A stretch of DNA of 64,000 bases from a virus (lineage: Duplodnaviria > Caudoviricetes), in the IMG/VR virus record IMGVR_UViG_3300043450_000376; one strand, given 5' to 3'. Both the position numbers and the translations under genes were made by a program. Positions 12,526 through 60,927 of this stretch are shown in pieces (positions within the stretch are counted from its first letter, which is position 1; the number at the start of each line of letters is the position of its first letter). The notes under the pieces were generated by a model. It was not told the DNA's origin and did no database searches. It worked only from the letters and a program-made list of their open reading frames with translations.

Positions 12526-12948
12526 ATGAAGGCAAAATCATTTAGTCAATTTATTACCGAAGACCACAACGATGATGCACAACAACATCAGGTTTATCGC
12601 AGACTACAGGGGCTTGGACTTGCTGACTCTCCACTTGAAGGATTGGAGAAGATGTTGATACAGCGCCGCTGGAAATGGGAAAAGGTTGATAGCGACCGCA
12701 CCTTTGCAATTGAGCTAACCCGATGGGAAGCTGAGTCGACCTATCTGTCGCGAATGGGTGCGCGCCACCAAAAGAAATATCCTAATGTCTACTATTTTAG
12801 TGTAACTGATCTAGGTGCCGAGCCCAATCAGGTTCGAATCCTGTGGTATTCAAGTAAAGACTCTGTTAAGGAGGTGCAGGTTGCCGCAGAGCCAGAGGTA
12901 ATAGTACGCAAGATTGAACAATTATTTGGTGAACGCAGTGCAGATTAA
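12526..12948 (+). CDS. hypothetical protein with T4-like capsid-targeting N-terminus
   Basis: MKAKSFSQFITE versus T4 internal protein MKTYQEFIAE. Confidence 0.7.
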   Translation: MKAKSFSQFITEDHNDDAQQHQVYRRLQGLGLADSPLEGLEKMLIQRRWKWEKVDSDRTFAIELTRWEAESTYLSRMGARHQKKYPNVYYFSVTDLGAEPNQVRILWYSSKDSVKEVQVAAEPEVIVRKIEQLFGERSAD

Positions 12949-13375
12949 CAGAGCCAACATATCAGAAGCATTTTCATTTGGGGCATGGCAGCGACTACAG
13001 GATCTGGGCCTAAGCGAAGAAGGTATTGTTGCAAAGCGTATTGAACTATATCGCAAGCTGGTAAGTCAGGTTGTAGATCCAGAAGAATTTAAAAGGGTTC
13101 TAGTTGAACTTGGTCTCGCTATTATTAAGGTTAACGTTACCCGCAATAAAGGCTATGCTATGCACCAATCGGTTGCCATTGCTGGGCCAGAAGAGGCGTT
13201 TGAAGAATTAGATAGGTGGTGGCATAGTCAAACTGGTCGAGACTGTCCACTATACCTGCACCTTGAGCCTCACCATGCAAATAGCCCGCTGGTTAGGGAT
13301 CGTTGGGAAAGGGCAGTTTCAAGCGGAACCCCATTTACAGTTGGTGCGCTTAGCGACCATGCTGCAAAATTATAA
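12914..13375 (+). CDS. hypothetical protein, N-terminally similar to the upstream gene
   Basis: WQRLQDLGLSE versus YRRLQGLGLAD. Confidence 0.65.
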   Translation: MNNYLVNAVQINRANISEAFSFGAWQRLQDLGLSEEGIVAKRIELYRKLVSQVVDPEEFKRVLVELGLAIIKVNVTRNKGYAMHQSVAIAGPEEAFEELDRWWHSQTGRDCPLYLHLEPHHANSPLVRDRWERAVSSGTPFTVGALSDHAAKL

Positions 13376-13384
13376 TTAAGTACT

Positions 13385-14260
13385 ATGAAAAAATTAATAC
13401 TATTAACCCTATTGGTCCTAACCTGCTTTACTGCCACTTCACAAGTTGCGCAAGATACGGTTAAGCTTACTCCGCAAGAACTATTTGAATTTAATTCAGA
13501 GTGGTTGAGCTTGGGCACAACACAGTCCTATATTGATTTTTCAAAGGATGTCCTAAATACATCAGATCTTTCGCTTGGTATAGTTGGTCGTAAGGTTTCA
13601 ACTACCCTCAACTTGACCCTTAACAGGGCGTCAACTAGTGGTAAGTGGAGCCATGCTGGTATACTATCCATAAATCCAGGTTGGAAATATTATGGTGTAG
13701 GTTATGGCCTTACCCGAAAGCGGGCCAATCGCAGCACAACTTTACAAGTAGTTGGTTCGGCCGACTTTGATTTTCAGAAAAATATTAACATTTCGCTAAT
13801 CGATATGGTTAAAACCCGCCGCTTTGGTAACTTTGGTTATAACCTAACTGCAAGCCAAACCTGGTGGGGTGAGTGGCAAGGCCCATGGCAAGGTGAATAC
13901 ACAGTAGATTCGCTAGGCAATTGGGTTGCTAACATCTATCCAACGATGCCACCTTCTAGACAGCTAACAACCCGTGCGATGATTGTCTATTCCTATCCGG
14001 TTAAATTAAGACGGGTTACCCTTTCACCACAACTTATTTTAGTTAGTGATATTCATAAATCATTTAGTGATGGTACTCTTAATATTAGTTATCTAGCAGA
14101 TTTTAACATTGATGCCTATTATGGGGTACAGGCTGACTGGAAAATAGGCAAGCACTTTATCCTAAATAGCGGTCTTAGATTTAATAGCACAATTGAAAAA
14201 AACAGTCAAGATTTTAAAAAGAGTAATCCAATTCTTTTTTCAATCGGCACCGGCTTCTAG
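13385..14260 (+). CDS. exported protein, probable outer-membrane beta-barrel
   Basis: Signal peptide; alternating beta-strand pattern; C-terminal Phe (IGTGF). Confidence 0.6.
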   Translation: MKKLILLTLLVLTCFTATSQVAQDTVKLTPQELFEFNSEWLSLGTTQSYIDFSKDVLNTSDLSLGIVGRKVSTTLNLTLNRASTSGKWSHAGILSINPGWKYYGVGYGLTRKRANRSTTLQVVGSADFDFQKNINISLIDMVKTRRFGNFGYNLTASQTWWGEWQGPWQGEYTVDSLGNWVANIYPTMPPSRQLTTRAMIVYSYPVKLRRVTLSPQLILVSDIHKSFSDGTLNISYLADFNIDAYYGVQADWKIGKHFILNSGLRFNSTIEKNSQDFKKSNPILFSIGTGF

Positions 14261-14269
14261 AAATAAATA

Positions 14270-14614
14270 ATGTATATGAAACACGTATCAAACTTTGGAG
14301 GCTGGAAAGCCGAAAATAATATTAATGAAAGCTTGATTCTTACTATTCAAGCTGGTATTGTACTTGGTCTACTTGGTATAAAGGGCCTTATGATGATTGT
14401 ACGCAAGGTTGCGCAAAAGGTTGGTGAAGGGGTTGAACTGCCTAAAGCTGAACTAAAATCCCTAGTTGATGACATTATCTCCGATATTAAAAAGGCAGAT
14501 AAGGGTAACTCATCATTTGCTGAATTAGAACGCGAACTAAAAAAGAGGATTGATGGTGGTGAAATTACCAAAGCCAAAGATATTATTCCTGTAATTAAAG
14601 AATTTACTAAATGA
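14270..14614 (+). CDS. single-TM hypothetical protein with capsid-targeting-like N-terminus
   Basis: MKHVSNFGGWKAENNINE followed by a hydrophobic helix. Confidence 0.65.
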   Translation: MYMKHVSNFGGWKAENNINESLILTIQAGIVLGLLGIKGLMMIVRKVAQKVGEGVELPKAELKSLVDDIISDIKKADKGNSSFAELERELKKRIDGGEITKAKDIIPVIKEFTK

Positions 14615-15444
14615 AACACTTAATGCTCTATGAAGAGTGGTGTGCAGCTGGTAAGTTAGACACCGATTCATATCAAATAGACGAACAGCTTTCTGATATC
14701 CTACATTTTGTTGGTGATGTTGCAGCTGCCGTGGCCGATGTAGTCGTACCTGGTTCGGGCGCTGTACTTGATGTTATTAATATGCTTTCCTATTGGGTGC
14801 AGGCTCATCTAGCAACAGACGGTCTTGACAAAACCAAATACATACTTAGTGGTATAATTCAGGCATTTGCTATATTTGATCCAATTAATGCGCTTAGTAC
14901 AATACTTAAAACTGGTCTTAACAAGGTAATTGCCGCAATCGCAACCAAGAGCCCAGCCACACTTGCTGCCGCCAGGATTGCAGCACGCCAAGTTGCAGAT
15001 GGCCTAACTACACTGCTAGGAGCCTTAACTGGCTTTGCAACCAAAATGATAACTGGGCTAAGTGGTTCAAAATTTGGCTCAGCTGTTGCATGGCTAAGTA
15101 CAAAATTAGGCATGACTAATGTACTTGCCTGGCTAAAGACTTTTATTACCCAAACTGCGCCAACTTATATTAAACAGTTTCTAACCCGAATCCGCGATAC
15201 ATTTAATCCAGCTCAAGCTGGTGCAAATACTGCTGCAACTGAATTTAATCAGGTACTAAGCCGAAATATTGCAAAGACAGTTGTTAACTATGGTGCAGCT
15301 AATGCTATTCACCAAAAGGTATCAACCTTTGCTCAAAACTGGAATAGTTCAATCCAAAATATTAAGAACTATCCAGATCCAAGAATTATGGCTAGGGACA
15401 ATACTTATGTTGCTCAAAACCACAGACTACCTGGTTTAAACTAG
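14611..15444 (+). CDS. hydrophobic helical protein with capsid-targeting-like N-terminus
   Basis: MKHLMLYEEW; long Ala/Gly/Leu-rich helices. Confidence 0.7.
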   Translation: MKHLMLYEEWCAAGKLDTDSYQIDEQLSDILHFVGDVAAAVADVVVPGSGAVLDVINMLSYWVQAHLATDGLDKTKYILSGIIQAFAIFDPINALSTILKTGLNKVIAAIATKSPATLAAARIAARQVADGLTTLLGALTGFATKMITGLSGSKFGSAVAWLSTKLGMTNVLAWLKTFITQTAPTYIKQFLTRIRDTFNPAQAGANTAATEFNQVLSRNIAKTVVNYGAANAIHQKVSTFAQNWNSSIQNIKNYPDPRIMARDNTYVAQNHRLPGLN

Positions 15445-15474
15445 ACTTAATCCAAATTCATGGTATCTAGTACA

Positions 15475-15483
15475 AGATAAATA
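15475..15483 (+). promoter_or_regulatory. class III promoter AGATAAATA
   Basis: Upstream of gene 15508. Confidence 0.65.
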
Positions 15484-15507
15484 ATTACAAATAAACATTA
15501 TCTTAAA

Positions 15508-16779
15508 ATGTCTACAATTAAATCATTTGAATCCTTTGTTAATGAAGGTCTAACCAATCAATACCTAACTCAACTTAATGAGGGGTTTGAAAAAGATAGC
15601 TATACATATCGCACAGAATCTACTAATTTAAGACCAATGCAATATTTTGACCAGGTTACCACGGTTTTGCAAACTGGAACTTTAACCAAAGGAAATATTC
15701 CACCGTGGTTGGGTCGATATGGTAATTTTGAAGGAAAATCTGCTAACGAAATTTATCAAGTGTTAATGGCAAAGGAGGCCCTAATTGAAATAGATTTAAT
15801 TATTACAGCTAAGGCTCAAAAAAGTAATACTGCAGAAGAGCTTATCAAATGGAAAGCTGACCCAACTAAGAATTTATTGTATGCAATGGTTTTGCTTGAT
15901 CTAAACTCAAATAATCGTGAATCTTGGCGAAGCTCTCTAGACAAAGGTAGAACCTCTGTAATTGTTTCTGATATTGAAACAAAGAAAAAAATTACTAAAC
16001 CAGGTTCTTCCGTAACTACACCGGGTACACAATCTGCGCCAAATGCAACATCTGTTCCATTTAGTCATTCACAAGATGGTTCTAAAGGAGATGTGTTTGT
16101 AATTAATGAATGGATTTTAAGTGATTCATTTAAATCTGAGCTTGATGCTAGAATTCAAGATATTAAACAAACGGTTGATTTATTAAATCCGCCTTCAGGT
16201 AAGCCTAAAGCATTTTGCTCAAATATTGAAATTGAATCCAGTTGTTCAACCGCTCCAAATGGTACACCAAAATCTTCACCTGGTGCTTCAAAATATGCAG
16301 GAACAAAAATCTCTTTTATGGATTTGTCTAAAGAGCGAGCAAATGCAATTTTAACATATCTTAAAACTGGATTATCTTCAGTTGGAGTTTTAATTGATAC
16401 TGATACTAAAGTTACAATTAAAGCTGATGGTCAAAATGCAGATGGTACAAGCGGACCAGCTTGGAATAGTGTAAAGGGTAATTCAAATGAAGAAAAACTT
16501 GCACAAGTTAAAAAATATCAAATGGCAAAGTTTGATTTTACAATTCTATTTAATGATACAACGGCGTCAATTACTCCATCTGAGGAAACAAAACCCGAAG
16601 GTTCGGTTGTTCCGCCAGAAATGGTTGAAGTACCGGTTGGAGAATACAAATTGACTCTTGCAATTAACACATTTAGATTCCACTTGCCTGAAATTACTTT
16701 ACCTAGAATCAAAATCAGACTTCCTAAATTAGGTAGTGGTCGACGTAATTGGGGTTCAACTAAATGTTATAAATTCTAA
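15508..16779 (+). CDS. capsid-targeted protein with an OmpA/MotB-like domain
   Basis: MSTIKSFESFVNE; P/T linker; IEIESSCS...DLSKERANAILTYL. Confidence 0.65.
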   Translation: MSTIKSFESFVNEGLTNQYLTQLNEGFEKDSYTYRTESTNLRPMQYFDQVTTVLQTGTLTKGNIPPWLGRYGNFEGKSANEIYQVLMAKEALIEIDLIITAKAQKSNTAEELIKWKADPTKNLLYAMVLLDLNSNNRESWRSSLDKGRTSVIVSDIETKKKITKPGSSVTTPGTQSAPNATSVPFSHSQDGSKGDVFVINEWILSDSFKSELDARIQDIKQTVDLLNPPSGKPKAFCSNIEIESSCSTAPNGTPKSSPGASKYAGTKISFMDLSKERANAILTYLKTGLSSVGVLIDTDTKVTIKADGQNADGTSGPAWNSVKGNSNEEKLAQVKKYQMAKFDFTILFNDTTASITPSEETKPEGSVVPPEMVEVPVGEYKLTLAINTFRFHLPEITLPRIKIRLPKLGSGRRNWGSTKCYKF

Positions 16780-16800
16780 TAGCTAAATACTTTATTGTAA

Positions 16801-16829
16801 AAAGCCGGGAAAATCTCTCGGCTTTTTTT
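16801..16829 (+). terminator. intrinsic terminator
   Basis: AAAGCCGGGA/TCTCGGCTTT plus T-run. Confidence 0.8.
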
Positions 16830-16842
16830 GTATATTAGATAT

Positions 16843-17337
16843 ATGAAGAAGTTGCTAATTATAGGAATCTTTGCAATAAGTCCACTTGCAAAAGCACAGG
16901 TAAAAACCGATTCAGTTTATACTGTAATTCGTGAATTGGTTGCTCCATCTACCAAAATAACCAGAACATCAAACCTTGATTCTGCTGCAGCCTTTCACGC
17001 AAATTACCTAATCTCTGGTAAAAAGACTGGCCACTATGAAGAAGAGTGCCCTCTAACCAAAACCCCAATGCGCAGAGCAGAAAAGTTTGGAGATGAAGGA
17101 TTGGGTATCTATGAAGTATGCTGGGCTGGAACCCCAAAGTATGGAAATCTGCCGGCCTCAGTACGATCGGCTATCTATTATTTTAAACTTAGTGATAAAC
17201 ACTGGGATATTATGACCAGAGCAGTTAGTCAATTTACTGAAATCAGATTCGGCTATAGCCGAATTGAAACTAAAGACTGGAGTGTATGCGTTATTATCTA
17301 CTCAACTGGTCCAGAACCGGTTGGATCTAACAGATAA
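16843..17337 (+). CDS. secreted CAP (SCP-like) domain protein
   Basis: Signal peptide; AAAFHANYL...GH...RRAEKFG...EV...SDKHWDIM; ATG start preferred over the TTG at 16828. Confidence 0.65.
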   Translation: MKKLLIIGIFAISPLAKAQVKTDSVYTVIRELVAPSTKITRTSNLDSAAAFHANYLISGKKTGHYEEECPLTKTPMRRAEKFGDEGLGIYEVCWAGTPKYGNLPASVRSAIYYFKLSDKHWDIMTRAVSQFTEIRFGYSRIETKDWSVCVIIYSTGPEPVGSNR

Positions 17338-17340
17338 ATA
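17332..17340 (+). promoter_or_regulatory. class III promoter AGATAAATA
   Basis: Upstream of gene 17365. Confidence 0.65.
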
Positions 17341-17364
17341 ACTACAAACAAACATTAATGTACA

Positions 17365-18714
17365 ATGTCAAACATTTTAAGATACCAAACTTGGTTAAAT
17401 GAAAACCGTATCTTTGAGGCAGACTCTAGTCTCTTCATTGATTGGAAAGGAAAATTAAGCGGAGCATTTCCTAAATTAGGATTAGCTGGAGAAGGCAAAC
17501 GAATAATTGGAATTGGTGCAAAGTCCGGAAAAGAAGACGCAATGGGAATAACATTTGGCTCAGCTGCAAATCGCGGAACTAAGTGGTCAGTAATTACACC
17601 GCCTAAATCTACTCCGCCAGTTGCAACTACTCCACAATTAACACCGCCTACTATTACCCCATCTGTTGATTTTAAAGGAACAGATTTTCCTTATCCAGAT
17701 AATATTATTACCCCAAACTGGACCATTGCACAAGGTGCAAAGACTCTATTTGATGGTTTTATTATAAATCTGGTTGACTATTTTAAATTAGATCCAACTC
17801 AAGCTAAAAACAATTTTAAATCAATTGCAATTGAAGGAGCAGCCGACGTTGCAACTGCAACGCTAGATGTTCCAGCTGGATATACGAAGCTAGATCATAA
17901 TTATGGTGGAGCTAAACCCAGTAACGAATTTCTTGCAGAGAATCGTGCACTTAAAATGAAAGAAGCAATTGTTAAAGCCCTAACTGCAAATGGCGGACTT
18001 ACTCCAGAATTAGTTACTTTTATATCAGGTAAAATTACAACCACTTTTAAAACAGGTTTACCGAGAGGCGGTCGTTATGTTAAAATCACAACTGCAGCTA
18101 CTCCATATGATGTAAAAACAGCAGGCACAGCAATTCCAGCCACAACTACACCAGGAACAGAAACTCCAGGCCAAGTTGGACCTAGCGGAGAAATTTCTAA
18201 AACCTATTCGGTTCTAACTGATAATTTATTAGAATTCTTTTTTGGAGATGCCAGTACGCATAAAATTGAATCTAGTGCAATTACTCCATTTAGACCAGAT
18301 AAAAATGGTAAATCTGATTTTGTAAAAATTGAAATTTCAGCTTTACAAAATTGGGCTAAAGCATATTTAGGTGGTGAGCTATTAAGTTCAGCTGAAGTTG
18401 CTAATCTTACTGCAACTATTGAAATGGGTGAAGCTGAGACTCGTCAAAATGCATACGGTAAAGAAAGAACCTATTCAATTTCATTTAATGTTCCATCTGG
18501 AAAAGTATTTGCTCCATCTGATGAAGGTAATACTGTTACATGCTCAACTCAAAATAGTAGATATCTAAACCAATTTGGTTATGGAACAGATCAGCAAGGA
18601 ATAAAAACAGGTATGCCATTTGTAATATTCTATACTGCAATTGGAGACGGTCAGTGGGGAATATTAGAAATGAATTCAATTGCAATTGCAAAAGAAACTT
18701 TAATAATGGGATAA
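17365..18714 (+). CDS. capsid-targeted protein with an OmpA/MotB-like domain; paralogue-like to 15508-16779
   Basis: MSNILRYQTWLNE; P/T linker; IAIEGAAD...NEFLAENRALKM. Confidence 0.6.
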   Translation: MSNILRYQTWLNENRIFEADSSLFIDWKGKLSGAFPKLGLAGEGKRIIGIGAKSGKEDAMGITFGSAANRGTKWSVITPPKSTPPVATTPQLTPPTITPSVDFKGTDFPYPDNIITPNWTIAQGAKTLFDGFIINLVDYFKLDPTQAKNNFKSIAIEGAADVATATLDVPAGYTKLDHNYGGAKPSNEFLAENRALKMKEAIVKALTANGGLTPELVTFISGKITTTFKTGLPRGGRYVKITTAATPYDVKTAGTAIPATTTPGTETPGQVGPSGEISKTYSVLTDNLLEFFFGDASTHKIESSAITPFRPDKNGKSDFVKIEISALQNWAKAYLGGELLSSAEVANLTATIEMGEAETRQNAYGKERTYSISFNVPSGKVFAPSDEGNTVTCSTQNSRYLNQFGYGTDQQGIKTGMPFVIFYTAIGDGQWGILEMNSIAIAKETLIMG

Positions 18715-18721: not shown

Positions 18722-19486
18722 ATGCGATACATCAAACTATTTGAAGACCTAGAACCATTTTATCAGCCGAGCCTTAACCCAAGGGTTTGGGGAGTTACTG
18801 ATGTAAATACTGCACCTAAAATCCATCCAGGTTTAAGAAACAGGCTACTTGTTATTGCGCAAGATTTCTATGAAGCCCTTAAAGTTGAGATTCCAATTGA
18901 GGATATCCACTTAACTGGCTCGCTTGCTAATTATAACTGGACTAAGTATTCAGATTTTGATGTGCATGTTCTATTTGATTTTACTAAGATTAATGAAGAT
19001 ACTGCACTAGTTAAAAAAGCACTCGACGGTCAACGATTTATGTGGAATCAGCGTCATCCAGTCCAAATCTTAAGTCATGATGTTGAACTATATGCCCAAG
19101 ATATTAGTGAACCACACATCGCAAGCGGTCTCTATTCTCTCCTAAAAGACGAGTGGATTACAATTCCTCGCTTTACTCCACCTTCAATTGATCCTAAAGA
19201 CGTTAGTCGTAGAGTTGAAGCACTAGAAACTGAAATTGAAATGCTGGCTAAAGAGATTGTTACGGGCGATTTCGGGTTAATTCAGGAGCCTCTAATCTCA
19301 AGAGTTGATTGGCTTAAAGAGAAAATCATGAAAGCTCGCAAGGATGGTCTAAGTGCACGAGGAGAGTTCTCAGTTGAGAACCTAACGTTTAAAGCGCTTA
19401 GAAATTCAGGCCATATTGAAAAACTAATTGATCTAGGCAAAGAAGCCTATCGACGTCGTCACTCAGACGGAAACCCTATTGTATAG
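18722..19486 (+). CDS. Pol-beta-superfamily nucleotidyltransferase with capsid-targeting-like N-terminus
   Basis: TGSLANYNWTKYSDFDVH (GS...DxD) and third Asp in HDVELY; N-terminus MRYIKLFED. Confidence 0.8.
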   Translation: MRYIKLFEDLEPFYQPSLNPRVWGVTDVNTAPKIHPGLRNRLLVIAQDFYEALKVEIPIEDIHLTGSLANYNWTKYSDFDVHVLFDFTKINEDTALVKKALDGQRFMWNQRHPVQILSHDVELYAQDISEPHIASGLYSLLKDEWITIPRFTPPSIDPKDVSRRVEALETEIEMLAKEIVTGDFGLIQEPLISRVDWLKEKIMKARKDGLSARGEFSVENLTFKALRNSGHIEKLIDLGKEAYRRRHSDGNPIV

Positions 19487-27611: not shown

Positions 27612-28018
27612 TGAAGTTTTTAAATCAACACCCTATCAAGAAATCTGATCTTGGATTTCATGGTAATTTATTTGGAGGTAAACTCCTAGCCTGGATTGAT
27701 GCAGCGGCAGCCGGTTATGCAATGGAATATGCACATAATCGTAGAATGGTTACAGTTAAAATTGATGAATGTATATTTAAAAAGCCAGCCAAAGAGGGCA
27801 GTCTACTTAAAATTTATGGTTCTATAACAAAGGTTGGTAATACCAGTATTACTCTGTACATAGAGGCAAGATCCTTTAATGTCTATACGCACGACGAAGA
27901 TATTGTCCTGTCCACTCATATTACATTTGTTAGAATAGATGAAGACGGTAGTCCTATTCCAATTTCAGATAAGGTTCGAAACGGCTTTCATTATGAAGTA
28001 GCATCGAAAGATAAATAA
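27611..28018 (+). CDS. acyl-CoA thioesterase (hotdog fold)
   Basis: GNLFGGKLLAWID, VTVKID, VGNTSI, FVRIDEDG. Confidence 0.85.
   Translation: MKFLNQHPIKKSDLGFHGNLFGGKLLAWIDAAAAGYAMEYAHNRRMVTVKIDECIFKKPAKEGSLLKIYGSITKVGNTSITLYIEARSFNVYTHDEDIVLSTHITFVRIDEDGSPIPISDKVRNGFHYEVASKDK
28009..28017 (+). promoter_or_regulatory. class III promoter AGATAAATA
   Basis: Upstream of gene 28041. Confidence 0.65.
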
Positions 28019-28040: not shown

Positions 28041-28913
28041 ATGTCATTAGTAACTAGCTTCGATAAATTTAATGTAAACGAAGAAGAAATTGAAACTCCT
28101 ACTCCAGCCCCGGCTGAAGATCCAATGGCTGAACCTGCTGCTTCTGAAGAAGTTAAAGTAGAAGAGCCTGCTGCTGAAGAAGCTCCAACCGAAGAAGTTA
28201 AAGCGGACGAACCTCAAGCTGAAGAACACGAATACTATTTTACATGGTATGGCTGGGTTCCTAGTTATGGAGATTTTGACCAAGACTGGATGTCAGTTAA
28301 AGCAAAATCGGATAGCGAAGCAATTGAAAAATTATCTGAATACAAACCACTTCAATATTCAAAAGGTGGAGTTGGTCTTGATACACTAGACGGAGAAAAA
28401 CCTAAAGGTGCATCTGTTGCTGGATGGGACGAACAAGAAGATGGTTCTAAAATTGCAAAATCTTATGAAGTAGATTTTAAAAACAAGAAATTTGTTCTTA
28501 ATGTTACTACATATCCAAAGGATCACTTTGCTAATCCTAAAGAAAACCCTAAAAAGAATGAAAAACAGGACGTTGAACCATTCTTTAGTGGAGAAACTAA
28601 AACTAATGAAGGAATGGATTCTATGATGGAAGTTTCTCTTGAAGAGAAGTACGATACATTTGTAGAGTCAATTCGCAAAAGCGGTAAAGGCGCAAAGCTT
28701 ACCTTAACACCTAACGATATTATTGTTGAATTTGGATTTGACTATCCAGATGAATTAGCTCAGCTTGCATTTGAAACTGCAGATGAATTAGGAATTTCTA
28801 GTAGAGAACTTTCAGTTTGTGCAGAATCTAGCGGACACAAAGCTATTAAGATCAATAGAGTTAACGGTGGCCCTAAGAACTGGAACATGCTAAATAGATA
28901 CGGGCGTCGTTAA
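28041..28913 (+). CDS. acidic hypothetical protein with capsid-targeting-like N-terminus
   Basis: MSLVTSFDKFNVNE; E/P/A-rich segment. Confidence 0.7.
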   Translation: MSLVTSFDKFNVNEEEIETPTPAPAEDPMAEPAASEEVKVEEPAAEEAPTEEVKADEPQAEEHEYYFTWYGWVPSYGDFDQDWMSVKAKSDSEAIEKLSEYKPLQYSKGGVGLDTLDGEKPKGASVAGWDEQEDGSKIAKSYEVDFKNKKFVLNVTTYPKDHFANPKENPKKNEKQDVEPFFSGETKTNEGMDSMMEVSLEEKYDTFVESIRKSGKGAKLTLTPNDIIVEFGFDYPDELAQLAFETADELGISSRELSVCAESSGHKAIKINRVNGGPKNWNMLNRYGRR

Positions 28914-28916: not shown

Positions 28917-29174
28917 GTGCCAAAGGTATTATCATATAACGAGTGGGCTGATCTTAAGCAAGCCAATCATGTAAACCACGATGGCTATCTAGACTCATCT
29001 CCAAATAATACAAACCCCTATAATATTATTCCTTCTGCTGACATCACAATGGATGGCGTTAGCAGAAGGCTTAAACTTACCCCCGAAAAAGGCGAATCTA
29101 TTATCGCTGAACCAAACTCAGGTTCATATAATTTCGGAGACTCTAGTTGGGTACTAGAAATTCCTCAAGATTAA
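28917..29174 (+). CDS. hypothetical protein with capsid-targeting-like N-terminus
   Basis: MPKVLSYNEW; GTG start. Confidence 0.55.
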   Translation: MPKVLSYNEWADLKQANHVNHDGYLDSSPNNTNPYNIIPSADITMDGVSRRLKLTPEKGESIIAEPNSGSYNFGDSSWVLEIPQD

Positions 29175-48840: not shown

Positions 48841-49782
48841 TTATGCAATAGTTGATGCATAGTCTAGTGCTCTTGCATAACCTCTTGCACTATGGCCGGC
48901 ACGAATATCTGTACCCCATCCAGCATTGGCTTGAACATAGTCAGTAACAGCAGATTCTAAATTATTGTAGGAGTTTAGGTCTTTACCCTTTCCTTTAAAA
49001 CTATTAATAAAGTACAACATTGCAAATTCAGCTGCAATATTTGGATCTTCTAGTAATTCAGGTTCCTCAACAATATTAATTTCAGTACCAGCTTTAAGCT
49101 TACCCATTTTATCAAATAGGTCTTGCAGTTTTTTATAGTTAGCCTTAAATGTTATTTGGTTAAATCCACGACCTCTATATCTAGCCCCATCGCCAGGTTG
49201 AGTATTGCCGTATTTTACACCACGACCAGTTGGATCGTCTACTCCATATACTCTATCCCAAAATTTAGTAGGCTCTTCTTTTAGTGCAGTAAGTTGACTA
49301 TCGGAAAGATCTGCTACTCTTGCACCATATACTTCTCTGATTCTTGAATTTGAAGTATTACTATAGTCCCCTTCTGGAGTTAAGTTTGAACTTTCTTTTG
49401 AAATTACACCAAGAATTGCTTTTCTTGCAAAGTCATTTGTAATTCCATGTCTTTCCATTGCAGCCTCAAGCGCTAAGACGTTTTCTGCTGGAATTTTCTT
49501 GTCAAACTTTTTAAATTTAGTAGACGACTTAGCAGAATCTGATTTAGATTTTTCTTTATCATCAGCTTTAGTATCAGTCTTTATACCTAGGGCAGAAGCA
49601 GTCTTATCTATAACTGCAGCTGCGGTTGATCCAGGTTCTGCAATTGAAGTTACTGAACTTGGTGCAGGCTCAACTGCCTTTCCGGTAAATGCCGATGTTG
49701 CAAGATCGCCAATCCATCCTAAAAATGAAGTGTCTTCATTTAATCTTTGCCATGACTTAAAGTCTCTAATGTTTTGTCCCAT
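48841..49782 (-). CDS. GH19 (chitinase-like) peptidoglycan hydrolase with capsid-targeting-like N-terminus
   Basis: GDGARYRGRGFNQIT..ANY; MGQNIRDFKSWQRLNE; AGATAAATA at 49806-49814 (minus). Confidence 0.8.
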   Translation of the reverse strand: MGQNIRDFKSWQRLNEDTSFLGWIGDLATSAFTGKAVEPAPSSVTSIAEPGSTAAAVIDKTASALGIKTDTKADDKEKSKSDSAKSSTKFKKFDKKIPAENVLALEAAMERHGITNDFARKAILGVISKESSNLTPEGDYSNTSNSRIREVYGARVADLSDSQLTALKEEPTKFWDRVYGVDDPTGRGVKYGNTQPGDGARYRGRGFNQITFKANYKKLQDLFDKMGKLKAGTEINIVEEPELLEDPNIAAEFAMLYFINSFKGKGKDLNSYNNLESAVTDYVQANAGWGTDIRAGHSARGYARALDYASTIA

Positions 49783-49860
49783 TAATAATTAGTTATTTCT
49801 ATAAATATTTATCTAAGGAAGATAACCCAGTTAACAAACGTAGTATAATAACTTAGTTAT

Positions 49861-50546: not shown

Positions 50547-51611
50547 ATGAATGAACCTATATTAGGAGTACATGCATTCTACTCAGGAGATGTAGATGAA
50601 GGAATATTTAAATCAGTTAATTTACTATGTCAATTAACGTCAGCTCTGTATTGGAGAAAAAACTTTGGCCCAATTGGTCTCTATATTAGTCCCGAACGAG
50701 AGGCTCAGCTATTTCACTATGGTCTGCACAATGCCTATTCGTTTGTTGATACTATCCACCATGAACAGGTGTTAATGCGAAGTGATGATAGATTTTGGGC
50801 ATATCCTAAAATGCTAATTGCAAAACACGTTTCACTAGACTTTAATAAATTTTGCATGATCGATACCGATCTCTATATTAAATCTAGAGATTTTTTTAAT
50901 ATTGATGCACAAATATTAACTTTCCATGGTGAAATAACCGATGCTGACAAATATCCAGAAGTTGGTTATGTAAATGGCGATGACCTATACAAAGTTGCAG
51001 AGTTAGAGAGTCCAGTTGAAAAATGGTCGCCTAGAGCAGTTAACACGGCAATGCTGTATTGTAATGGAGCTAGCGAATTTATCCATGAGTGGATGTATCA
51101 TGCAGAAATGATCGTTGAAAATAGCGATAAGTGGAAACCTATTATTGGAGCAGGCGATCAGATTTTTATAGAACAATACCTATTGTCTAATTTAGCTGAA
51201 GCCCGAGGAATTAATATTGAAACTTATCTTAAATCAGACTGGATTCCTGGCAAAAAGATTAATGTGACCCACCTAGATCCAGAAATGGAAGGTTGGATTC
51301 ACACCGAACCTCTTGATACAGTTAAACAGAAATTTAATAATGTTTTACATATATGGGGTCTAAAGCATAACTTAAATTATGCAATCGTTAGGCTTCAACT
51401 TTTAGGTAAAATTCTTGAAGATTTAGATAGAGATTTTCCAGGAATTGACCAGTCATATCCAGTTCTGTTAGCTGAGGCTAGGGAATTGTACAAAGACCAA
51501 ACTGACTATAATCTAGGTATATTGACTAAAGATACACCTAAACAAATAAAGAATGGAAAATCAAAAAAACTTCGCCCAACACCTAACAGAAAAAGCAACA
51601 GCCCTTCTTAA
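50547..51611 (+). CDS. DUF6734-like / nucleotide-diphospho-sugar transferase-like protein
   Basis: FWAYPKM...FCMIDTD (DxD), NTAML..G, IFIEQYLL, HIWG. Confidence 0.55.
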   Translation: MNEPILGVHAFYSGDVDEGIFKSVNLLCQLTSALYWRKNFGPIGLYISPEREAQLFHYGLHNAYSFVDTIHHEQVLMRSDDRFWAYPKMLIAKHVSLDFNKFCMIDTDLYIKSRDFFNIDAQILTFHGEITDADKYPEVGYVNGDDLYKVAELESPVEKWSPRAVNTAMLYCNGASEFIHEWMYHAEMIVENSDKWKPIIGAGDQIFIEQYLLSNLAEARGINIETYLKSDWIPGKKINVTHLDPEMEGWIHTEPLDTVKQKFNNVLHIWGLKHNLNYAIVRLQLLGKILEDLDRDFPGIDQSYPVLLAEARELYKDQTDYNLGILTKDTPKQIKNGKSKKLRPTPNRKSNSPS

Positions 51612-51882
51612 AAGAATTGGAACAGTTGCAGTTTTAGCCAGTGCACTAATCGCAGGATTTTGTATTGGTTATTATTACGAATTAGCCTTAAACAAAGTTA
51701 AAGGTGAAGCTTGGAGAGAAGCTAGATCTCTTAAAAGTACGTCGATTGCAGTAAATGAAAAGGAAGAGCTATTGATTATCGATAGAAAGACTGGAGTTTA
51801 TACAATTTACTCAGACTCAATCGGACGTGTTATTTTTAACATATATGCACAAAAAGCATATGTAAATGCTACTGGCCACTAA
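51553..51882 (+). CDS. single-TM hypothetical protein
   Basis: ORF track; hydrophobic helix. Confidence 0.65.
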   Translation: MENQKNFAQHLTEKATALLKRIGTVAVLASALIAGFCIGYYYELALNKVKGEAWREARSLKSTSIAVNEKEELLIIDRKTGVYTIYSDSIGRVIFNIYAQKAYVNATGH

Positions 51883-56137: not shown

Positions 56138-56143
56138 TTTAAT

Positions 56144-56383: not shown

Positions 56384-56386
56384 GAA

Positions 56387-56650
56387 ATGAAAACATTTGA
56401 AGATTTAGAATTTAAAGATCACCCAAACCATGAGGGTGGCGTGCATGCCAAAATCAAATTTAGTAATGGATTTGGCGCAAGTATAGTTAAAAGCCCGTAT
56501 TCGTATGGTGGAAAAAACGGGCTATACGAATTGGCAGTATTTGGACAAGACGGAGATATTACCTATGATACTCCAATTACTAGTGATGTATTAGGTTATT
56601 TATGTGAAGCTGAAGTAACCGCAACCCTAGCTCAAATTCAAGCTCTATAA
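56387..56650 (+). CDS. phage hypothetical protein
   Basis: FSNGFGAS...SYGG..GLYELA...TPITSDVLGYL. Confidence 0.78.
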   Translation: MKTFEDLEFKDHPNHEGGVHAKIKFSNGFGASIVKSPYSYGGKNGLYELAVFGQDGDITYDTPITSDVLGYLCEAEVTATLAQIQAL

Positions 56651-56651
56651 T

Positions 56652-56939
56652 ATGGCAAAGAAGAAATCTCCAGAAGAAGTAGCACAGGTTCTCATTGATA
56701 AAATGTTTGAGCTAGCCGGTCATGAAGTTAAATACGCAGATATCGTTGAGCGCAAAGACAATTGGTTTTGGGATTGGACTATGACAATGGAACAGCGAAA
56801 TCAATGGATGGAATGGGGTGTTGACTACTTACGTAAAAACAATAGATATACAACCAAAAAGCAGGCTGAGATCAATATGAGCTGGGTTGATATGCAATGG
56901 GGTCTTAAAGTATCAGATTATGAGCACGCTAACAATTAA
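56652..56939 (+). CDS. hypothetical protein
   Basis: ORF track. Confidence 0.7.
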   Translation: MAKKKSPEEVAQVLIDKMFELAGHEVKYADIVERKDNWFWDWTMTMEQRNQWMEWGVDYLRKNNRYTTKKQAEINMSWVDMQWGLKVSDYEHANN

Positions 56940-57228
56940 TACAGATTCAAGTCACTTGACCATGCAAGGTTCAGGTAAAGTTACTATTAAGAGTAGTATT
57001 AAGATTGCTGGCAGCGGGACTCATTTACCAATTGAGTGTACTGCAGATTTTAGTACTATTCCAACTCATTTGCACCAAGTATATTTTGATGCATTTAAGT
57101 ATCAATACAATAGCCAAGTAAATGTTCATAATAATACTGAGCCTTTAACAATCAAAGAACAAAAAAGTGAATGGCGCTTGAATAGGATAACTAATATTAT
57201 TCTTAATGCAATTAAATCAAAGAGGTAA
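56920..57228 (+). CDS. hypothetical protein
   Basis: Internal ATG of ORF-track entry 56887-57228. Confidence 0.6.
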   Translation: MSTLTINTDSSHLTMQGSGKVTIKSSIKIAGSGTHLPIECTADFSTIPTHLHQVYFDAFKYQYNSQVNVHNNTEPLTIKEQKSEWRLNRITNIILNAIKSKR

Positions 57229-57461
57229 TGAGCAGATACACCAAAAAACTGGATAGTGGACAAACTATCATATACGGCTGGGACCATGCGCTTGGATATT
57301 TTTATGATGTCTGGGAAAATTATGGTACCAAAGAAGAAAAATGTATTAAGGATCGATGTTCCCTCTTCGGCATGTCTAAAAATGAATTAGTTGCTGCAAT
57401 TAGCGAAATCAAGGCAAATCCAAATTTTATGCAAGCCCTTGCATTGGACCTGCCAGATTAA
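57228..57461 (+). CDS. hypothetical protein
   Basis: YGWDHALGYF. Confidence 0.65.
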   Translation: MSRYTKKLDSGQTIIYGWDHALGYFYDVWENYGTKEEKCIKDRCSLFGMSKNELVAAISEIKANPNFMQALALDLPD

Positions 57462-57547
57462 TTTAATGTTATTTTTAAAGAAATCTCACATTTTTAAAAA
57501 CTTATAGTGGACTTGTTGTTAAATAACTAAAATTAACAACTGTTATT

Positions 57548-57784
57548 ATGTCTATACTACTAAAATCACCAATTACCATTGACGATACCTATATCGGCAA
57601 AAGTTTTACTATGGTAAATTCTAGAGGTGAAGAGGTAGAAGACACTGTCAAAGAGTTTGTAACTATTTGGATGGCAAAAACTCATAGGAAAACCAACACT
57701 AGAGTTTATCGACCGCAGTTAACAGTTAAAAGCCCCAGTGAAAAACTCTATCCACTGGCTGAGATCTATTTTCATCTCGATTAA
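57548..57784 (+). CDS. hypothetical protein
   Basis: ORF track. Confidence 0.65.
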   Translation: MSILLKSPITIDDTYIGKSFTMVNSRGEEVEDTVKEFVTIWMAKTHRKTNTRVYRPQLTVKSPSEKLYPLAEIYFHLD

Positions 57785-57845
57785 TCCATTTCTTATTTAG
57801 TAGTATAAGACCATTGTAGCTAAGACACAAAATAATCTAAAAACA

Positions 57846-58148
57846 ATGGAATTAACTTCATTCGCTTTAGGTATGCTAACGATGGTTGCTATTGCATTTG
57901 CAGTAGTAGTTGTTATTGGTTTGCTTAAGGTTAACAGACAAGCAAAGCAGATTGAAAATCTGCACCAAGGAATCGATCAAATGAATCGAAATTTTCAACA
58001 AGATCTTCAAATATGGAGAACAGATTTAGAGTTAGAATTAAAGAGAGTCGAATTAGAGTGCAAATCCTACACTGATTCAAGACTTGATAAAAAATTAGGA
58101 TTGACAGGTTCAAAGTCACAAACAGAGAATACGCTAATTACTAGTTAA
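57846..58148 (+). CDS. N-terminally anchored coiled-coil protein
   Basis: TM helix followed by coiled coil. Confidence 0.7.
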   Translation: MELTSFALGMLTMVAIAFAVVVVIGLLKVNRQAKQIENLHQGIDQMNRNFQQDLQIWRTDLELELKRVELECKSYTDSRLDKKLGLTGSKSQTENTLITS

Positions 58149-58171
58149 TTAGTATATTAGTCTTAGCTACT

Positions 58172-58246
58172 CGGGATGTAGCGTAGCTCGGTTATCGCGC
58201 CTGCTTTGGGAGCAGGAGGTCGCAAGTTCGAATCTTGCCATCCCGA
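58172..58246 (+). tRNA. tRNA-Pro(TGG)
   Basis: Loop TTTGGGA. Confidence 0.95.
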
Positions 58247-58274
58247 CAAATATAGTTTTTAATAAAATTGTTAA

Positions 58275-58478
58275 ATGAGTAAAGTTGATTTAATAGAAGA
58301 GGATCTTTGGGATCACTATAGCGGATTACCGAATCCATCTTGGTATCAATATAAAAAGAAGCTAACTGATGAGAAAACTGATACAAATAATAGTACTGAT
58401 TTGGGAAATTCTAAAGAAACACCTCAGCCGCAAACGGAAAAGCATATGGAATTTATAAACAAGAACCAATTAAAGTAA
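58275..58478 (+). CDS. hypothetical protein
   Basis: DLWDHYSGLPNP motif. Confidence 0.6.
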   Translation: MSKVDLIEEDLWDHYSGLPNPSWYQYKKKLTDEKTDTNNSTDLGNSKETPQPQTEKHMEFINKNQLK

Positions 58479-58479
58479 A

Positions 58480-59073
58480 ATGAATAATTTAATAATAATA
58501 GCGCACCCTAACCGCAAATCTTTTTGCTATAATGGAATTTTTAAAACAATTGAAAATACCCTAATTAAAAACAATGAATCTGTCAAAGTATTAGATCTGT
58601 ACAATGACGATTACGCAAGACCAAGAACCGATTTGATACAATCATATAAAGAAGCGGTAACATGGTCAGACCGAATTTATATTATTTCTCCGGTATGGTG
58701 GTTTAGATTAACTCCAAGAATGGAAACTTTCTTCGATGAAGTATTTACACCAGGATTTGCATATAACTTTGTACCCTTAACTAAATTATACGGCTATCCA
58801 AAGCCACTATTAAGTGATAAAAAAGTTAGAACTTATTTAACACATGGAGCTCCGGCACTACCAGTTCAAACCCTATATTTAAACTCTGTTAAACTAAGAT
58901 TAGTTATGGGAGTTTATTCATTTGTCTTTGGTTGGTTTAAAACAAAAACCAGACAATTTTGGAGCGTACCTTTTGTATCTCAAGAAAAAAGAATAAAGTA
59001 TTTAAGAAGAGTAGAAAAAGATGTTAACTGCGATTTAGGCTGGAATACTCACGGATATTTTTATAAAAAATAG
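58480..59073 (+). CDS. NAD(P)H dehydrogenase (quinone), flavodoxin-like fold
   Basis: IIAHPNRKSF, DLY, SPVWWF..TP, FDEVF.PGFAY. Confidence 0.88.
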   Translation: MNNLIIIAHPNRKSFCYNGIFKTIENTLIKNNESVKVLDLYNDDYARPRTDLIQSYKEAVTWSDRIYIISPVWWFRLTPRMETFFDEVFTPGFAYNFVPLTKLYGYPKPLLSDKKVRTYLTHGAPALPVQTLYLNSVKLRLVMGVYSFVFGWFKTKTRQFWSVPFVSQEKRIKYLRRVEKDVNCDLGWNTHGYFYKK

Positions 59074-59086
59074 GTATATTATAATT

Positions 59087-59272
59087 ATGAAGAAGATCAG
59101 TAAGTTTTTTGTTTGGGCACAGTTAATTATCAACTTGTTATTAATGGTTGTATTATGCTTTGCCGCATTTGATAAAACAATCCTAGATGTGATTGATGTC
59201 AGATGGTGGACCCTTTTTATTTTAGTTAATTTGTACAGCGATAAGTTATACAAGGAATTAGATAAAGAATAA
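59087..59272 (+). CDS. small membrane protein
   Basis: Two hydrophobic segments. Confidence 0.55.
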   Translation: MKKISKFFVWAQLIINLLLMVVLCFAAFDKTILDVIDVRWWTLFILVNLYSDKLYKELDKE

Positions 59273-59280
59273 TAAAACGC

Positions 59281-59355
59281 GGTCCTGTAGTTCAACGGAT
59301 AGAACAACTGCCTTCTAAGCAGTGGATCCAAGTTCGATTCTTGGCGGGACTACCA
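59281..59355 (+). tRNA. tRNA-Arg(TCT)
   Basis: Loop CTTCTAA, encoded CCA. Confidence 0.95.
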
Positions 59356-59367
59356 CAAAATTTAAAT

Positions 59368-59628
59368 ATGAAAAAAGTATATTTTATAATTGGAACAATT
59401 TTTACACTAGCTGCACTTGGCTGTGAATCGCCTAAGGTTGCTGAAGTTATTGAAAAGGATTGTGTTATAACGGAAGTTGAATACTTCCAAATTGGACAAA
59501 AGCATACATTACAGCTTGATCCTGAATGGAGAGTCAAAACTGACTGTGGAACAACCTATACTATGCGAAAGGCAATGCGAGTAGGTGATACTGTTCAGAT
59601 TAAAATTGTAAAGTATAAGAAACATTAG
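59368..59628 (+). CDS. small lipoprotein
   Basis: Lipobox ALGC after the internal ATG. Confidence 0.65.
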   Translation: MKKVYFIIGTIFTLAALGCESPKVAEVIEKDCVITEVEYFQIGQKHTLQLDPEWRVKTDCGTTYTMRKAMRVGDTVQIKIVKYKKH

Positions 59629-59651
59629 TATAATAAATTAAAATCAATACA

Positions 59652-59861
59652 ATGAAAGCACATTTAGCAAATATGCTGAAATCCGCAGCTGAAGCAGATA
59701 GACAAAGGGCTCTTTTAACTCTTGAACTATTAAGTAATCATGCAGTAGGAATTGGCGACCATTCGACTGGAGATTTCTATAAAAATGCTGAAGAAGCTAT
59801 TACAATGTTAGTAGATGCAGACGATCGCATCGCTGCCGTTGAAAAGTATCTAAGTAAGTAA
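59652..59861 (+). CDS. phage hypothetical protein
   Basis: VGIGDH motif. Confidence 0.72.
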   Translation: MKAHLANMLKSAAEADRQRALLTLELLSNHAVGIGDHSTGDFYKNAEEAITMLVDADDRIAAVEKYLSK

Positions 59862-59870
59862 TAAATCCAA

Positions 59871-59955
59871 GCCCTTTTGGTGGAATTGGTAGACACGCTA
59901 GACTTAGGATCTAGTGCCGCAGGGTGTGAGAGTTCGAGTCTCTCAGAGGGTACCA
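59871..59955 (+). tRNA. tRNA-Leu(TAG)
   Basis: Loop CTTAGGA, long variable arm, encoded CCA. Confidence 0.95.
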
Positions 59956-59956
59956 C

Positions 59957-59983
59957 AGGACTGAAGCAATTCAGTCCTTTTTT
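59957..59983 (+). terminator. intrinsic terminator
   Basis: AGGACTGAA-GCAA-TTCAGTCCT plus T-run. Confidence 0.88.
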
Positions 59984-59988
59984 CGTTT

Positions 59989-59997
59989 AGATAAATA
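59989..59997 (+). promoter_or_regulatory. class III promoter AGATAAATA
   Basis: Directly after a terminator, 6 nt before the ATG. Confidence 0.65.
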
Positions 59998-60002
59998 ACC
60001 TT

Positions 60003-60383
60003 ATGAAGAATCAAGTTAAACAGTTTAGCGAATTTATCAATGAGGCTAAAGCACCTACTGACAATCTCAAAAAGAAATTTATTGAGTTTGACGAGTCCCG
60101 ATTAATGGGAGCAACTAAAATTGCAGAAAATGCAAAGGAACGCGGCGGTAACGCAATGTTAACGTATAACCACTTTGTTGTTAAGTTACCATATTACAAA
60201 AAAGCAAAAAAGGGCTGGACGGTTGAAGATCGCGACTCTGCAATAAAAGAATACAATACTTTAATTGATGAACTTGCCTCAACTAAAGACACTGTTAAAA
60301 TTAAGCAAACTGACTTTCAAAAGTTAGTTGGAAAAATCGAAGTTCTTGGAGAACTTATTATTAAGTACAATGAAATATATTAA
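60003..60383 (+). CDS. hypothetical protein with capsid-targeting N-terminus
   Basis: MKNQVKQFSEFINE. Confidence 0.72.
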   Translation: MKNQVKQFSEFINEAKAPTDNLKKKFIEFDESRLMGATKIAENAKERGGNAMLTYNHFVVKLPYYKKAKKGWTVEDRDSAIKEYNTLIDELASTKDTVKIKQTDFQKLVGKIEVLGELIIKYNEIY

Positions 60384-60927
60384 GCTATACGAAGATTTTG
60401 ATCTTGATAAATTTATGAAAGATCCTGAAGCAGAGTTTCAGAAAAACGAGGAAAATCCTGATATTGAGCCTGGTGACTATGTAACTAGTTATAGAGGACC
60501 TGGCCAAGTAATTGATATGGATGATGACTTTATTAAAATTGAACTATTGGATTCTAGCAAAAGGATTGTTAGAGTTCCAAAGGATCTTGTTACTAAAACT
60601 AAAAAGAAAGACGTTTACCAAGATAACAAATCGCACGCTGAAGAAATTGCAGAGATTGGCGAAGAGGTTAGACAGTATGCTGAAATTATTTCTCCAGATG
60701 GAGAGGATCCAATGAATGTCAATGTTGAAGCCATTGCAGGTTTTATTGAAGATACCCTAATTGATGTATTAAGTATGTACAAAAAGGATAAAAATGTTAC
60801 ATATCTTCCAGGTTATGATAGTATTGTAAATGGTATTGCACTAATTGCAGATATCGCTGAAACCGCTGATCCATCAATATCGGACAGAATACAAGCTGCT
60901 CTTGAAAAATTTTATGAATTGGGATAA
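60370..60927 (+). CDS. acidic hypothetical protein with capsid-targeting-like N-terminus
   Basis: MKYIKLYEDF (internal ATG of the track ORF). Confidence 0.7.
   Translation: MKYIKLYEDFDLDKFMKDPEAEFQKNEENPDIEPGDYVTSYRGPGQVIDMDDDFIKIELLDSSKRIVRVPKDLVTKTKKKDVYQDNKSHAEEIAEIGEEVRQYAEIISPDGEDPMNVNVEAIAGFIEDTLIDVLSMYKKDKNVTYLPGYDSIVNGIALIADIAETADPSISDRIQAALEKFYELG

Follow-up and report, generated by a model that had tools for sequence, protein, structure and literature searches.

The analyzed window is a 64-kb stretch of phage DNA (64,000 nt; IMG/VR record IMGVR_UViG_3300043450_000376) with a GC content of about 36%, which encodes 24 tRNAs, T4-type topoisomerase II subunits, and many proteins with Bacteroidota-style signal peptides. 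Eleven of its genes specify proteins that begin with a short leader resembling the capsid-targeting sequence (CTS) of the internal head proteins of phage T4. These 11 N-termini had been listed in an earlier description of the window (the original prediction), and all of them were found to translate exactly as quoted there. The genes, which are named after the positions of their start codons, are as follows (arrows mark putative or known cleavage sites):

12526–12948, plus strand: 140-aa protein, canonical leader MKAKSFSQFITE↓D
14276–14614, plus strand: 112-aa protein, gapped leader MKHVSNFGGWKAENNINE↓S followed by a hydrophobic segment
14611–15444, plus strand: 277-aa protein, degenerate leader MKHLMLYEEW, second gene of its unit
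15508–16779, plus strand: 423-aa protein, canonical leader MSTIKSFESFVNE↓G
17365–18714, plus strand: 449-aa protein, canonical leader MSNILRYQTWLNE↓NRIFE↓A
18722–19486, plus strand: 254-aa nucleotidyltransferase-like protein, degenerate leader MRYIKLFEDLE↓P, second gene of its unit
28041–28913, plus strand: 290-aa protein, gapped leader MSLVTSFDKFNVNE↓E followed by a Pro/Ala/Glu-rich linker
28917–29174, plus strand: 85-aa protein, GTG start codon, degenerate leader (M)PKVLSYNEW, second gene of its unit
48841–49782, minus strand: 313-aa peptidoglycan-hydrolase-like protein with a GH19/chitinase-like endolysin domain, gapped leader MGQNIRDFKSWQRLNE↓D
60003–60383, plus strand: 126-aa protein, canonical leader MKNQVKQFSEFINE↓A
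60370–60927, plus strand: 185-aa protein, degenerate leader MKYIKLYEDFDLD with Asp in place of the processing Glu, second gene of its unit

The canonical leaders (12526, 15508, 17365, 60003) have the form [FYW]-x-x-[FYW]-[ILV]-x-E. In the gapped leaders (14276, 28041, 49782), the aromatic pair is separated from [ILV]-x-E by 1–4 extra residues, and in the degenerate leaders (14611, 18722, 28917, 60370) an adjacent [ILV]-x-E is absent or displaced. Seven of the 11 leaders had been claimed to contain (I/L/V)-x-E, and this count was correct, with four adjacent and three gapped cases; the Glu is residue 12–18 of these seven proteins. An aromatic-x-x-aromatic pair is present in ten leaders, the exception being 18722 with F-x-x-L.

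Relatives of the window were included in the assessment of the leaders. A megablast search of the deposited phage genomes (INPHARED) with 18 kb of the window did not yield a near match, and neither did a search of IMG/VR by exact pattern yield any match. JGI metagenome contigs, one of them of 201 kb, carry proteins that are identical to those of the window. The following genomes were used:

G001: IMG/VR contig, 118 kb, syntenic with the window; topoisomerase 96% identical to that of the window
G003: IMG/VR contig, 253 kb, 81% identical; CheckV completeness 93%
G002 and G005: IMG/VR contigs, in part; close relatives of the window
W01: LR745206.1, 634 kb, distant; topoisomerase 55% identical to that of the window
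PAU: Sphingomonas phage PAU, NC_019521, 219 kb, nearest cultured phage by protease similarity (37% identity)

Judged from the sizes of these relatives, the window belongs to a jumbo phage with a genome of about 250 kb. In gene content, with DnaJ beside the head genes, a sigma factor, and T4-like virion genes, the relatives resemble the recently described moraphages, which have Flavobacteriia as predicted hosts and ClpA, DnaJ, and DnaK as characteristic genes (PMC12619734). The host of the window phage is probably a member of the Bacteroidota.

The frequency of the leaders was quantified with a strict motif, [FYW]..[FYW][ILVMN].E, and residues 2–20 of each open reading frame (ORF) were shuffled in 300 trials as a control. 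The strict motif was present at 4 of the 128 N-termini of the window, compared to a mean of 0.27 and a maximum of 2 after shuffling, and three internal matches were found in about 18,000 positions of the window proteins. The relatives gave similar results, with 7 observed versus 0.30 shuffled N-termini in G001, 15 versus 0.69 in G003, and 28 versus 4.1 in W01. A half-motif, [ILVM][KRLST]x[FY]xx[FWY], was found in 8 of 128 ORFs of the window (1.2 shuffled), which is a modest margin for the window alone because up to 6 occurred in the 300 trials. The respective numbers were 14 of 182 ORFs for G001 (1.9 shuffled), 27 of 297 for G003 (3.0), and 87 of 970 for W01 (15.4), and about 9% of the ORFs carry the half-motif. 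In 48 of the 54 strict leaders of four phages, the Glu is located at residues 10–14, and the residue following it (P1′) is mostly S, N, E, A, or K. The codons of the conserved residues vary freely (TTT/TTC, ATT/ATC/ATA, GAA/GAG, and AGY/TCN for Ser), and the third-position identity at identical leader residues is 51%. This synonymous variation indicates that selection acts on the peptide and not on the DNA.

Two profile methods were applied in addition. A position-specific scoring matrix (PSSM) trained on the distant W01 alone assigned at least 10 bits to the same four canonical N-termini (15.3 bits for 12526 and 16.1 bits for 60003), versus 1 of 16,956 internal positions. A hidden Markov model (HMM) trained on relatives only (G001, G003, and orthologues) was used to rank 937 possible starts in all six frames, with a noise level of about 4.6 bits. 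The starts above noise were, in descending order, 60003 (24.7 bits, a score that is inflated because the G001 orthologue was in the training set), 12526 (17.8 bits), 15508 (17.6 bits), 17365, 51553 (13.3 bits), 14276 (10.8 bits), and 28917 (7.5 bits). The scores of 49782, 14611, and 60370 were at the noise level, and those of 28041 and 18722 were below it. The four canonical leaders are solid on statistics alone; the other seven need the evidence of orthologues or homologues.

The orthologue of the 14276 protein in G001 is 45% identical overall, retains MKHV..F..W.....INE, and identifies 14276, and not 14270, as the conserved start. For 28041, which is under noise in the ungapped PSSM and HMM, the orthologues in G001 and L049 have kept FDKF[NT]VNE. 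For 49782, 120 database homologues with 38–92% identity were inspected with regular expressions, and 96 had a leader, 29 of them strict, 59 gapped, and 8 with the aromatic pair only; most of the 24 homologues scored as having none still start, by eye, with MKHLKSREEFINE↓N or similar. Among the degenerate members, the G001 orthologue of 14611 is identical in the first 11 of 11 residues, versus 46% identity overall, and the G003 orthologue of 60370 has kept MKHVKLFEDFDLDKF, i.e., about 12 of 16 leader residues, versus 37% identity overall. Canonical leaders in orthologues were seen for one degenerate member, 18722 (MKHLKPYTSFINE↓G, MKLFKFTEFINE, and MKLFKFNEFLTE↓G in related phages). The sole orthologue seen for 28917 is 95% identical and is therefore silent about leader conservation, so that the membership of this gene is suggested by its HMM score and its aromatic pair only. 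A candidate extra member, which ranked fifth of the 937 starts, is the gene at 51553–51882 (plus strand, 109 aa, MENQKNFAQHLTE↓K). It has a His at the second aromatic position, the leader is not present in the G003 orthologue, and no ATAAATA site was seen before its start; its classification as an additional leader protein is doubtful.

The leader genes had also been stated to follow a promoter-like (A)GATAAATA or AAATAAATA site or to be second in a unit led by such a site, and inspection of the sequence bore this out. GATAAATA is found 13–32 nt upstream of six leader genes, and 14611, 18722, 28917, and 60370 are the second genes of site-led units. The sites are:

12495–12502, plus strand: GATAAATA site, 31 nt before 12526
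14261–14269, plus strand: AAATAAATA site, abutting the 14270/14276 starts
15476–15483, plus strand: GATAAATA site, 32 nt before 15508
17333–17340, plus strand: GATAAATA site, 32 nt before 17365
28010–28017, plus strand: GATAAATA site, 31 nt before 28041
49806–49813, minus strand: GATAAATA site, 31 nt before the 49782 start
59990–59997, plus strand: GATAAATA site, 13 nt before 60003

The co-occurrence of leader and late-promoter motif, which had been proposed as a check, was significant. ATAAATA is present within 50 nt upstream of all four strict-leader genes, compared to 10 of the 124 other ORFs (p = 9e-5), and the association was also found in G001 (p = 0.03) and G003 (p = 0.004). In W01, TTAATATATA precedes 14 of 26 leader genes versus 145 of 970 genes overall. 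Equal frequency of the leader in early genes had been named as an argument against a packaging role, and the early-type block of the window (144–10052) does not contain any strict- or half-motif N-terminus. Furthermore, a homologue of gp55, the late sigma factor of T4, is encoded by G003 (E = 4.5e-6). By analogy with T4, it is plausible that the leader genes are expressed late. In two units (59990–60005 and 14261–14278), the ATAAATA site ends just 1–7 nt before the ATG, and their mRNAs would be leaderless or nearly so if the site acts like a T4 late −10 element.

Two features upstream of the first leader gene can be described separately. A gene for a sigma-70 family factor (144–860, plus strand; Sigma70_r2 and r4, precomputed Pfam matches) lies at the start of the early-type block. 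Between this block and the first leader gene, the region 10000–12500 has a GC content of 0.45–0.47, versus about 0.36 elsewhere, and contains two minus-strand genes, one of which (10735–11367) encodes a serine recombinase (PF00239 Resolvase, JGI gene calls). This high-GC block is possibly an inserted mobile element.

The proteins behind the leaders are diverse. Enzymes had been named among them, and profile matches show two enzyme-like proteins in the window. The 18722 protein is a Pol-beta-type nucleotidyltransferase-like protein (Pfam NTP_transf_2, E = 1.2e-4; phrog_36119, E = 3.8e-33), and the 49782 protein matches the endolysin family phrog_181 (E = 4.6e-26). In Pfam searches with the cargo of the window leaders, nothing but the nucleotidyltransferase was found, even at E ≤ 5, and the 12526 protein did not match any Pfam or PHROG family. 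In the region 12526–13375, similar octapeptides occur shortly after the I-x-E sites of two consecutive ORFs, namely, RRLQGLGL (12526 protein) and QRLQDLGL (following ORF). For the 17365 protein, 23 homologues down to 23% identity were aligned, and Y7, W10, and E18 turned out to be the sole invariant residues among the first 100; an N-x-x-L-A-x-x-R-A stretch is invariant in the family as well. In the AF2 model of this protein (mean pLDDT 75), the leader forms a low-confidence helix of residues 2–14 that lies apart from the body. The top five Foldseek matches of the model were periplasmic peptidoglycan-binding domains of MotB/MotS, with weak scores (E about 0.01–0.04, probability 0.92–0.98), and residues of about 120–245 might form a MotB/OmpA-like peptidoglycan-binding domain.

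The combination of leader and cargo is modular, with one leader occurring on different cargo and one cargo occurring with additional domains. At the G001 locus corresponding to 49782, the same leader precedes a different cargo. The GH19-like homologues of the 49782 protein have four leader-headed architectures, the GH19-like domain alone or together with VanY, PG_binding_1, or Amidase_2.

As claimed in the original prediction, the T4 internal proteins IPII and IPIII begin with MKTYQEFIAE↓A (NC_000866); IPI begins with MKTFKEF...ITE↓A (T4 record). According to a review of L. Black's work (PMC9026906), ten residues of the T4 CTS suffice for encapsidation; mutagenesis has shown that residues 4 and 7 are the main determinants of targeting and residues 8 and 10 those of processing, and a protein with Asp at position 10 is still targeted, but no longer processed. 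The conserved positions of the leaders described here correspond to these residues 4, 7, 8, and 10 of the T4 CTS (Y, F, I, and E), of which the degenerate leaders retain 4 and 7, but lack 8 and 10. The internal proteins of T-even phages form a very varied group with the CTS as the sole common feature (PMC3012670). The T4 system (IPI, IPII, IPIII, and the Alt propeptide, with the protease gp21) thus has several likenesses to the system in the window: an N-terminal leader of 10–20 residues with aromatics at 4/7 and, in seven of the 11 leaders of the window, [ILV]-x-E corresponding to 8–10, unrelated and hypervariable cargo, an ATAAATA-type promoter that is putative in the window (in T4 the TATAAATA-like late promoter and the sigma factor gp55), and a gp21-family protease together with a gp23-family capsid protein, which are encoded in the close relative G001. 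In contrast to T4, which has 3–4 such proteins, 11 or more leaders are present in the 64 kb of the window, and about 25 per 250-kb genome. Further differences from T4 are that enzyme-like proteins of considerable size (up to about 450–660 aa) are among the cargo, that a variable spacer of 0–4 residues follows the aromatic pair before the Glu motif, that a subclass lacks the processing site, that the protease is fused to a scaffold domain, and that the system is known from sequence alone.

The existence of a gp21-like protease elsewhere in the genome had been proposed as a test, and such a protease was found in the syntenic relative G001, about 43 kb past the end of the window. The first approximately 230 residues of a 698-aa protein of G001 constitute a gp21-family (S77) protease (phrog_207 head maturation protease, E = 1.6e-38; precomputed match to PF03420 Peptidase_S77; T4 gp21 by phmmer, E = 1.1e-10), and a weak precomputed match to Peptidase_S80 (PF20034) was also present for this type of protease. 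Its GELDHP and SSR stretches align with GELNHP and SSR of gp21, which we take to be the catalytic His and Ser motifs. The following gene encodes a gp23-type major capsid protein (E = 1.8e-18; PF07068). The protease family is also present in G002, G003, G005, W01, W02, and PAU. When the W01 protease was used as the query, all homologues retrieved were near-identical proteins of the W01 type, and the protease of the window phage was not among them; a PHROG search with ten large ORFs of the G001 virion region was uninformative. The characterized members of this protease family all cut after Glu (PMC5694885). A W-x-x-x-L-x-E↓[S/G] motif near the N-terminus of the capsid protein is common to T4, G001, and PAU. 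Upstream of the gene for the protease-scaffold protein of G001, TAATAAATAAG was found, and several neighboring genes of the virion region carry an ATAAATA motif too. In G001 (103095–103448) and in G003 (159054–159413, minus strand), the capsid gene is immediately followed by a gene whose small product is rich in Lys, has KSVD.xMAKL-type repeats as well as a canonical leader, and can be likened to the T4 internal proteins.

Another G001 gene behind a GATAAATA site (68253–69470, plus strand) encodes a Cys-rich acidic protein of 405 aa with three internal leader- or cleavage-like motifs, VLRFADFLTE↓K at residue 53, KFEGYINE↓A at residue 254, and VEYNEYVAE↓A at residue 320. Judged from these motifs, the protein may be cut at several sites.

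The leaders are not confined to the window. Five more leader genes were found within the 10 kb upstream of it (L043:215–4574, same phage), three of them directly behind ATAAATA-type sites. Their leaders are MEIKKYHDWLFE↓K (514 aa), MPQHIKLFESWLGD (an Amidase_2 peptidoglycan amidase), MKYLKPYRLFE↓S, MKHIRLYKDFITE↓E, and MNRIKRFSEYLVE↓A. The consensus of the W01 leaders is MIKKYxQFIxE↓S. In PAU, 18 genes start with MK[ST][LI]..L[YF]E, often followed by ..KLNE↓[AS], and most of them are close to the genes for portal, protease, scaffold, and capsid proteins (about 100–113 kb of NC_019521). The depositors of PAU annotated two of the leader proteins as internal capsid proteins (gp142 and gp154) and one as scaffolding, and an AKLNE↓S sequence lies close to the N-terminus of the PAU capsid protein. 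The common leader of the 18 PAU genes resembles the degenerate leaders of the window (K-L-[YF]-E), but has Leu where the first aromatic residue would be, and in PAU, unlike in G001, protease and scaffold are separate genes. In the literature, no published description of such leaders in PAU or in huge phages was found. In the giant phages phiKZ, 201phi2-1, and SPN3US, dozens of head proteins are processed, the protease is related to gp21 and cleaves after Glu, and enzymes are ejected into the host (PMC5694885). In contrast to the system described here, with its I, L, or V at P3 and its leaders of 10–18 residues, their processing motif is [S/A/G]-x-E or A-x-E, and their propeptides often exceed 100 residues and do not have a short common aromatic leader.

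We hypothesize that the leaders are T4-type capsid-targeting propeptides and that a Bacteroidota-type jumbo phage has greatly expanded this system, and we regard this interpretation as likely. Those checks suggested in the original prediction that lend themselves to sequence analysis all spoke for it. The leader would be an amphipathic N-terminal peptide of 10–18 residues with two aromatic residues three positions apart, followed directly or after 1–4 residues by [ILV]-x-E with its terminal Glu. It would endow its cargo with an affinity for the scaffolding core while the prohead assembles, and the scaffold-fused serine protease of the gp21 family (S77) would cut after the Glu and free the cargo inside the head. 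The cargo may then leave the head together with the DNA at infection. Core binding, cleavage, packaging, and ejection are all inferred by analogy.

Several observations weigh against this interpretation. The whole physical case for packaging is drawn from the analogy with T4, and the late timing is likewise read from the promoter analogy. It was in relatives, and not in the window's own genome, that genes for the protease, the scaffold, and the capsid protein were found. Five leaders score at or under noise in the ungapped profile, and four of the 11 lack an adjacent processing site. In view of the T4 precedent with Asp at position 10, these degenerate leaders, including 60370 with its Asp, may be targeted without a cut at that site. 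Lastly, tagging of about 9% of the ORFs would correspond to at least 70 cargo proteins in the 634-kb phage, a very high number for head cargo, which leaves room for a different destination.

Such a destination is the core of the alternative that survives best, namely, that the leader serves as a tag for sorting to, or recognition by, DnaJ/ClpA-type chaperones, a membrane assembly site, or another compartment outside of the core, and that it is not removed by the prohead protease. The DnaJ gene that immediately precedes the gene for the protease-scaffold protein in G001 and G003 and the characteristic ClpA, DnaJ, and DnaK genes of the related moraphages are in keeping with chaperones as recipients, and the fraction of tagged ORFs is high for head cargo. 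However, the PAU leader genes cluster around the portal, protease, scaffold, and capsid genes, two of their products are annotated as internal capsid proteins, and the PAU capsid protein itself has the same KLNE↓ site. The four leaders without a cleavage site would also fit a permanent tag, but the Glu is tightly fixed at residues 10–14, as expected for a processing site, and the four conserved positions are the functional positions of the T4 CTS. A sorting tag of this kind is therefore considered unlikely.

The shared N-terminus could also be the conserved first segment of a single divergent paralogous family and have no role in targeting. The leader genes are often arranged in tandem, and the upstream regions of 15508 and 17365 are nearly identical. 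Nevertheless, as the original prediction had stated, the proteins are otherwise unrelated: BLASTP did not detect any similar pair among the 11 beyond the leader, which led to the rejection of a single family as the source of the leaders. Moreover, the leader of 49782 sits on other cargo at the counterpart locus of G001, the GH19-like cargo is found with VanY, PG_binding_1, or Amidase_2 always behind a leader, and leader residues are invariant in homologues with an identity of just 23–27%, so that paralogy is very improbable. The remaining explanation, a by-product of AT-rich codons, an element at the 5′ end of highly expressed genes that acts in the mRNA or in translation initiation, or chance, has in its favor the AT-rich codons of F, I, N, K, and E in a genome of about 36% GC and the presence of 12 GATAAATA sites on both strands of the 64 kb versus a rough estimate of about 9 from base composition, but it is effectively refuted by the loss of the motif upon shuffling and by the free codon variation, and the persistence of the motif in phages of 29%, 31%, 35%, and 41% GC further reduces it to a negligible option.

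If the leaders are capsid-targeting propeptides, as we favor, the scaffold offers a hint of how they might act. In G001 (99219–101315; L084:1378–3474), G003 (161268–163250, minus strand), and W01 (198546–200669), the protease is fused to a scaffold-like domain with 9–10 perfect 14-residue repeats, x-I-x-Y-S-E-Y-[LIV]-A-E-N-[LV]-x-x, each of which contains aromatic-x-x-aromatic-[ILV]-x-E. In all three genomes, the protease-scaffold protein has the highest number of internal strict-motif matches (6, 8, and 11, respectively). T4 gp22 has a single similar stretch, EWLAEN, and the N-terminus MLKEQLIAE↓A. It is conceivable, albeit tentative, that the leader is one copy of the scaffold's own repeat, that the cargo co-assembles as a pseudo-repeat, and that the cut that dismantles the scaffold also frees the cargo. 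With the HMM of the leaders, the scaffold repeats were not the best internal matches in G003 or W01, and they accounted for 4 of the top 25 in G001; the likeness between leader and repeat therefore holds at the key positions captured by the regular expression and not over the full profile. An ESMFold2 complex prediction with scaffold repeats and the first 45 residues of the 60003 protein did not give an answer (score 0.00, low pLDDT) and weighs neither way. If the leader is indeed a scaffold repeat, it would predict the packaged and ejected proteome from the sequence, i.e., about 9% of the genes and at least 70 proteins in a megaphage, and such a scaffold-mimicking tag would apply to Bacteroidota-type huge phages of the moraphage, Mahaphage, and PAU lineages.

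The system is of a known kind, and descriptions of its occurrence, scale, and variants in this lineage were not found in the literature. The CTS principle of T4, which has so far been characterized mainly in T-even phages, would be extended to a deep-branching lineage with predicted Bacteroidota hosts. PAU is a cultured phage and offers a testable system, and the leader suggests itself as a transferable tag by which foreign proteins could be loaded into capsids of this type. For most jumbo- and huge-phage genes, a function has not been established, and, if the interpretation is true, the leader would assign the capsid interior and probable delivery into the host to about one of 11 genes. Hypothetical proteins would thereby become candidate first-strike effectors, such as cell-wall hydrolases, nucleotidyltransferases, and possible anti-defense proteins.

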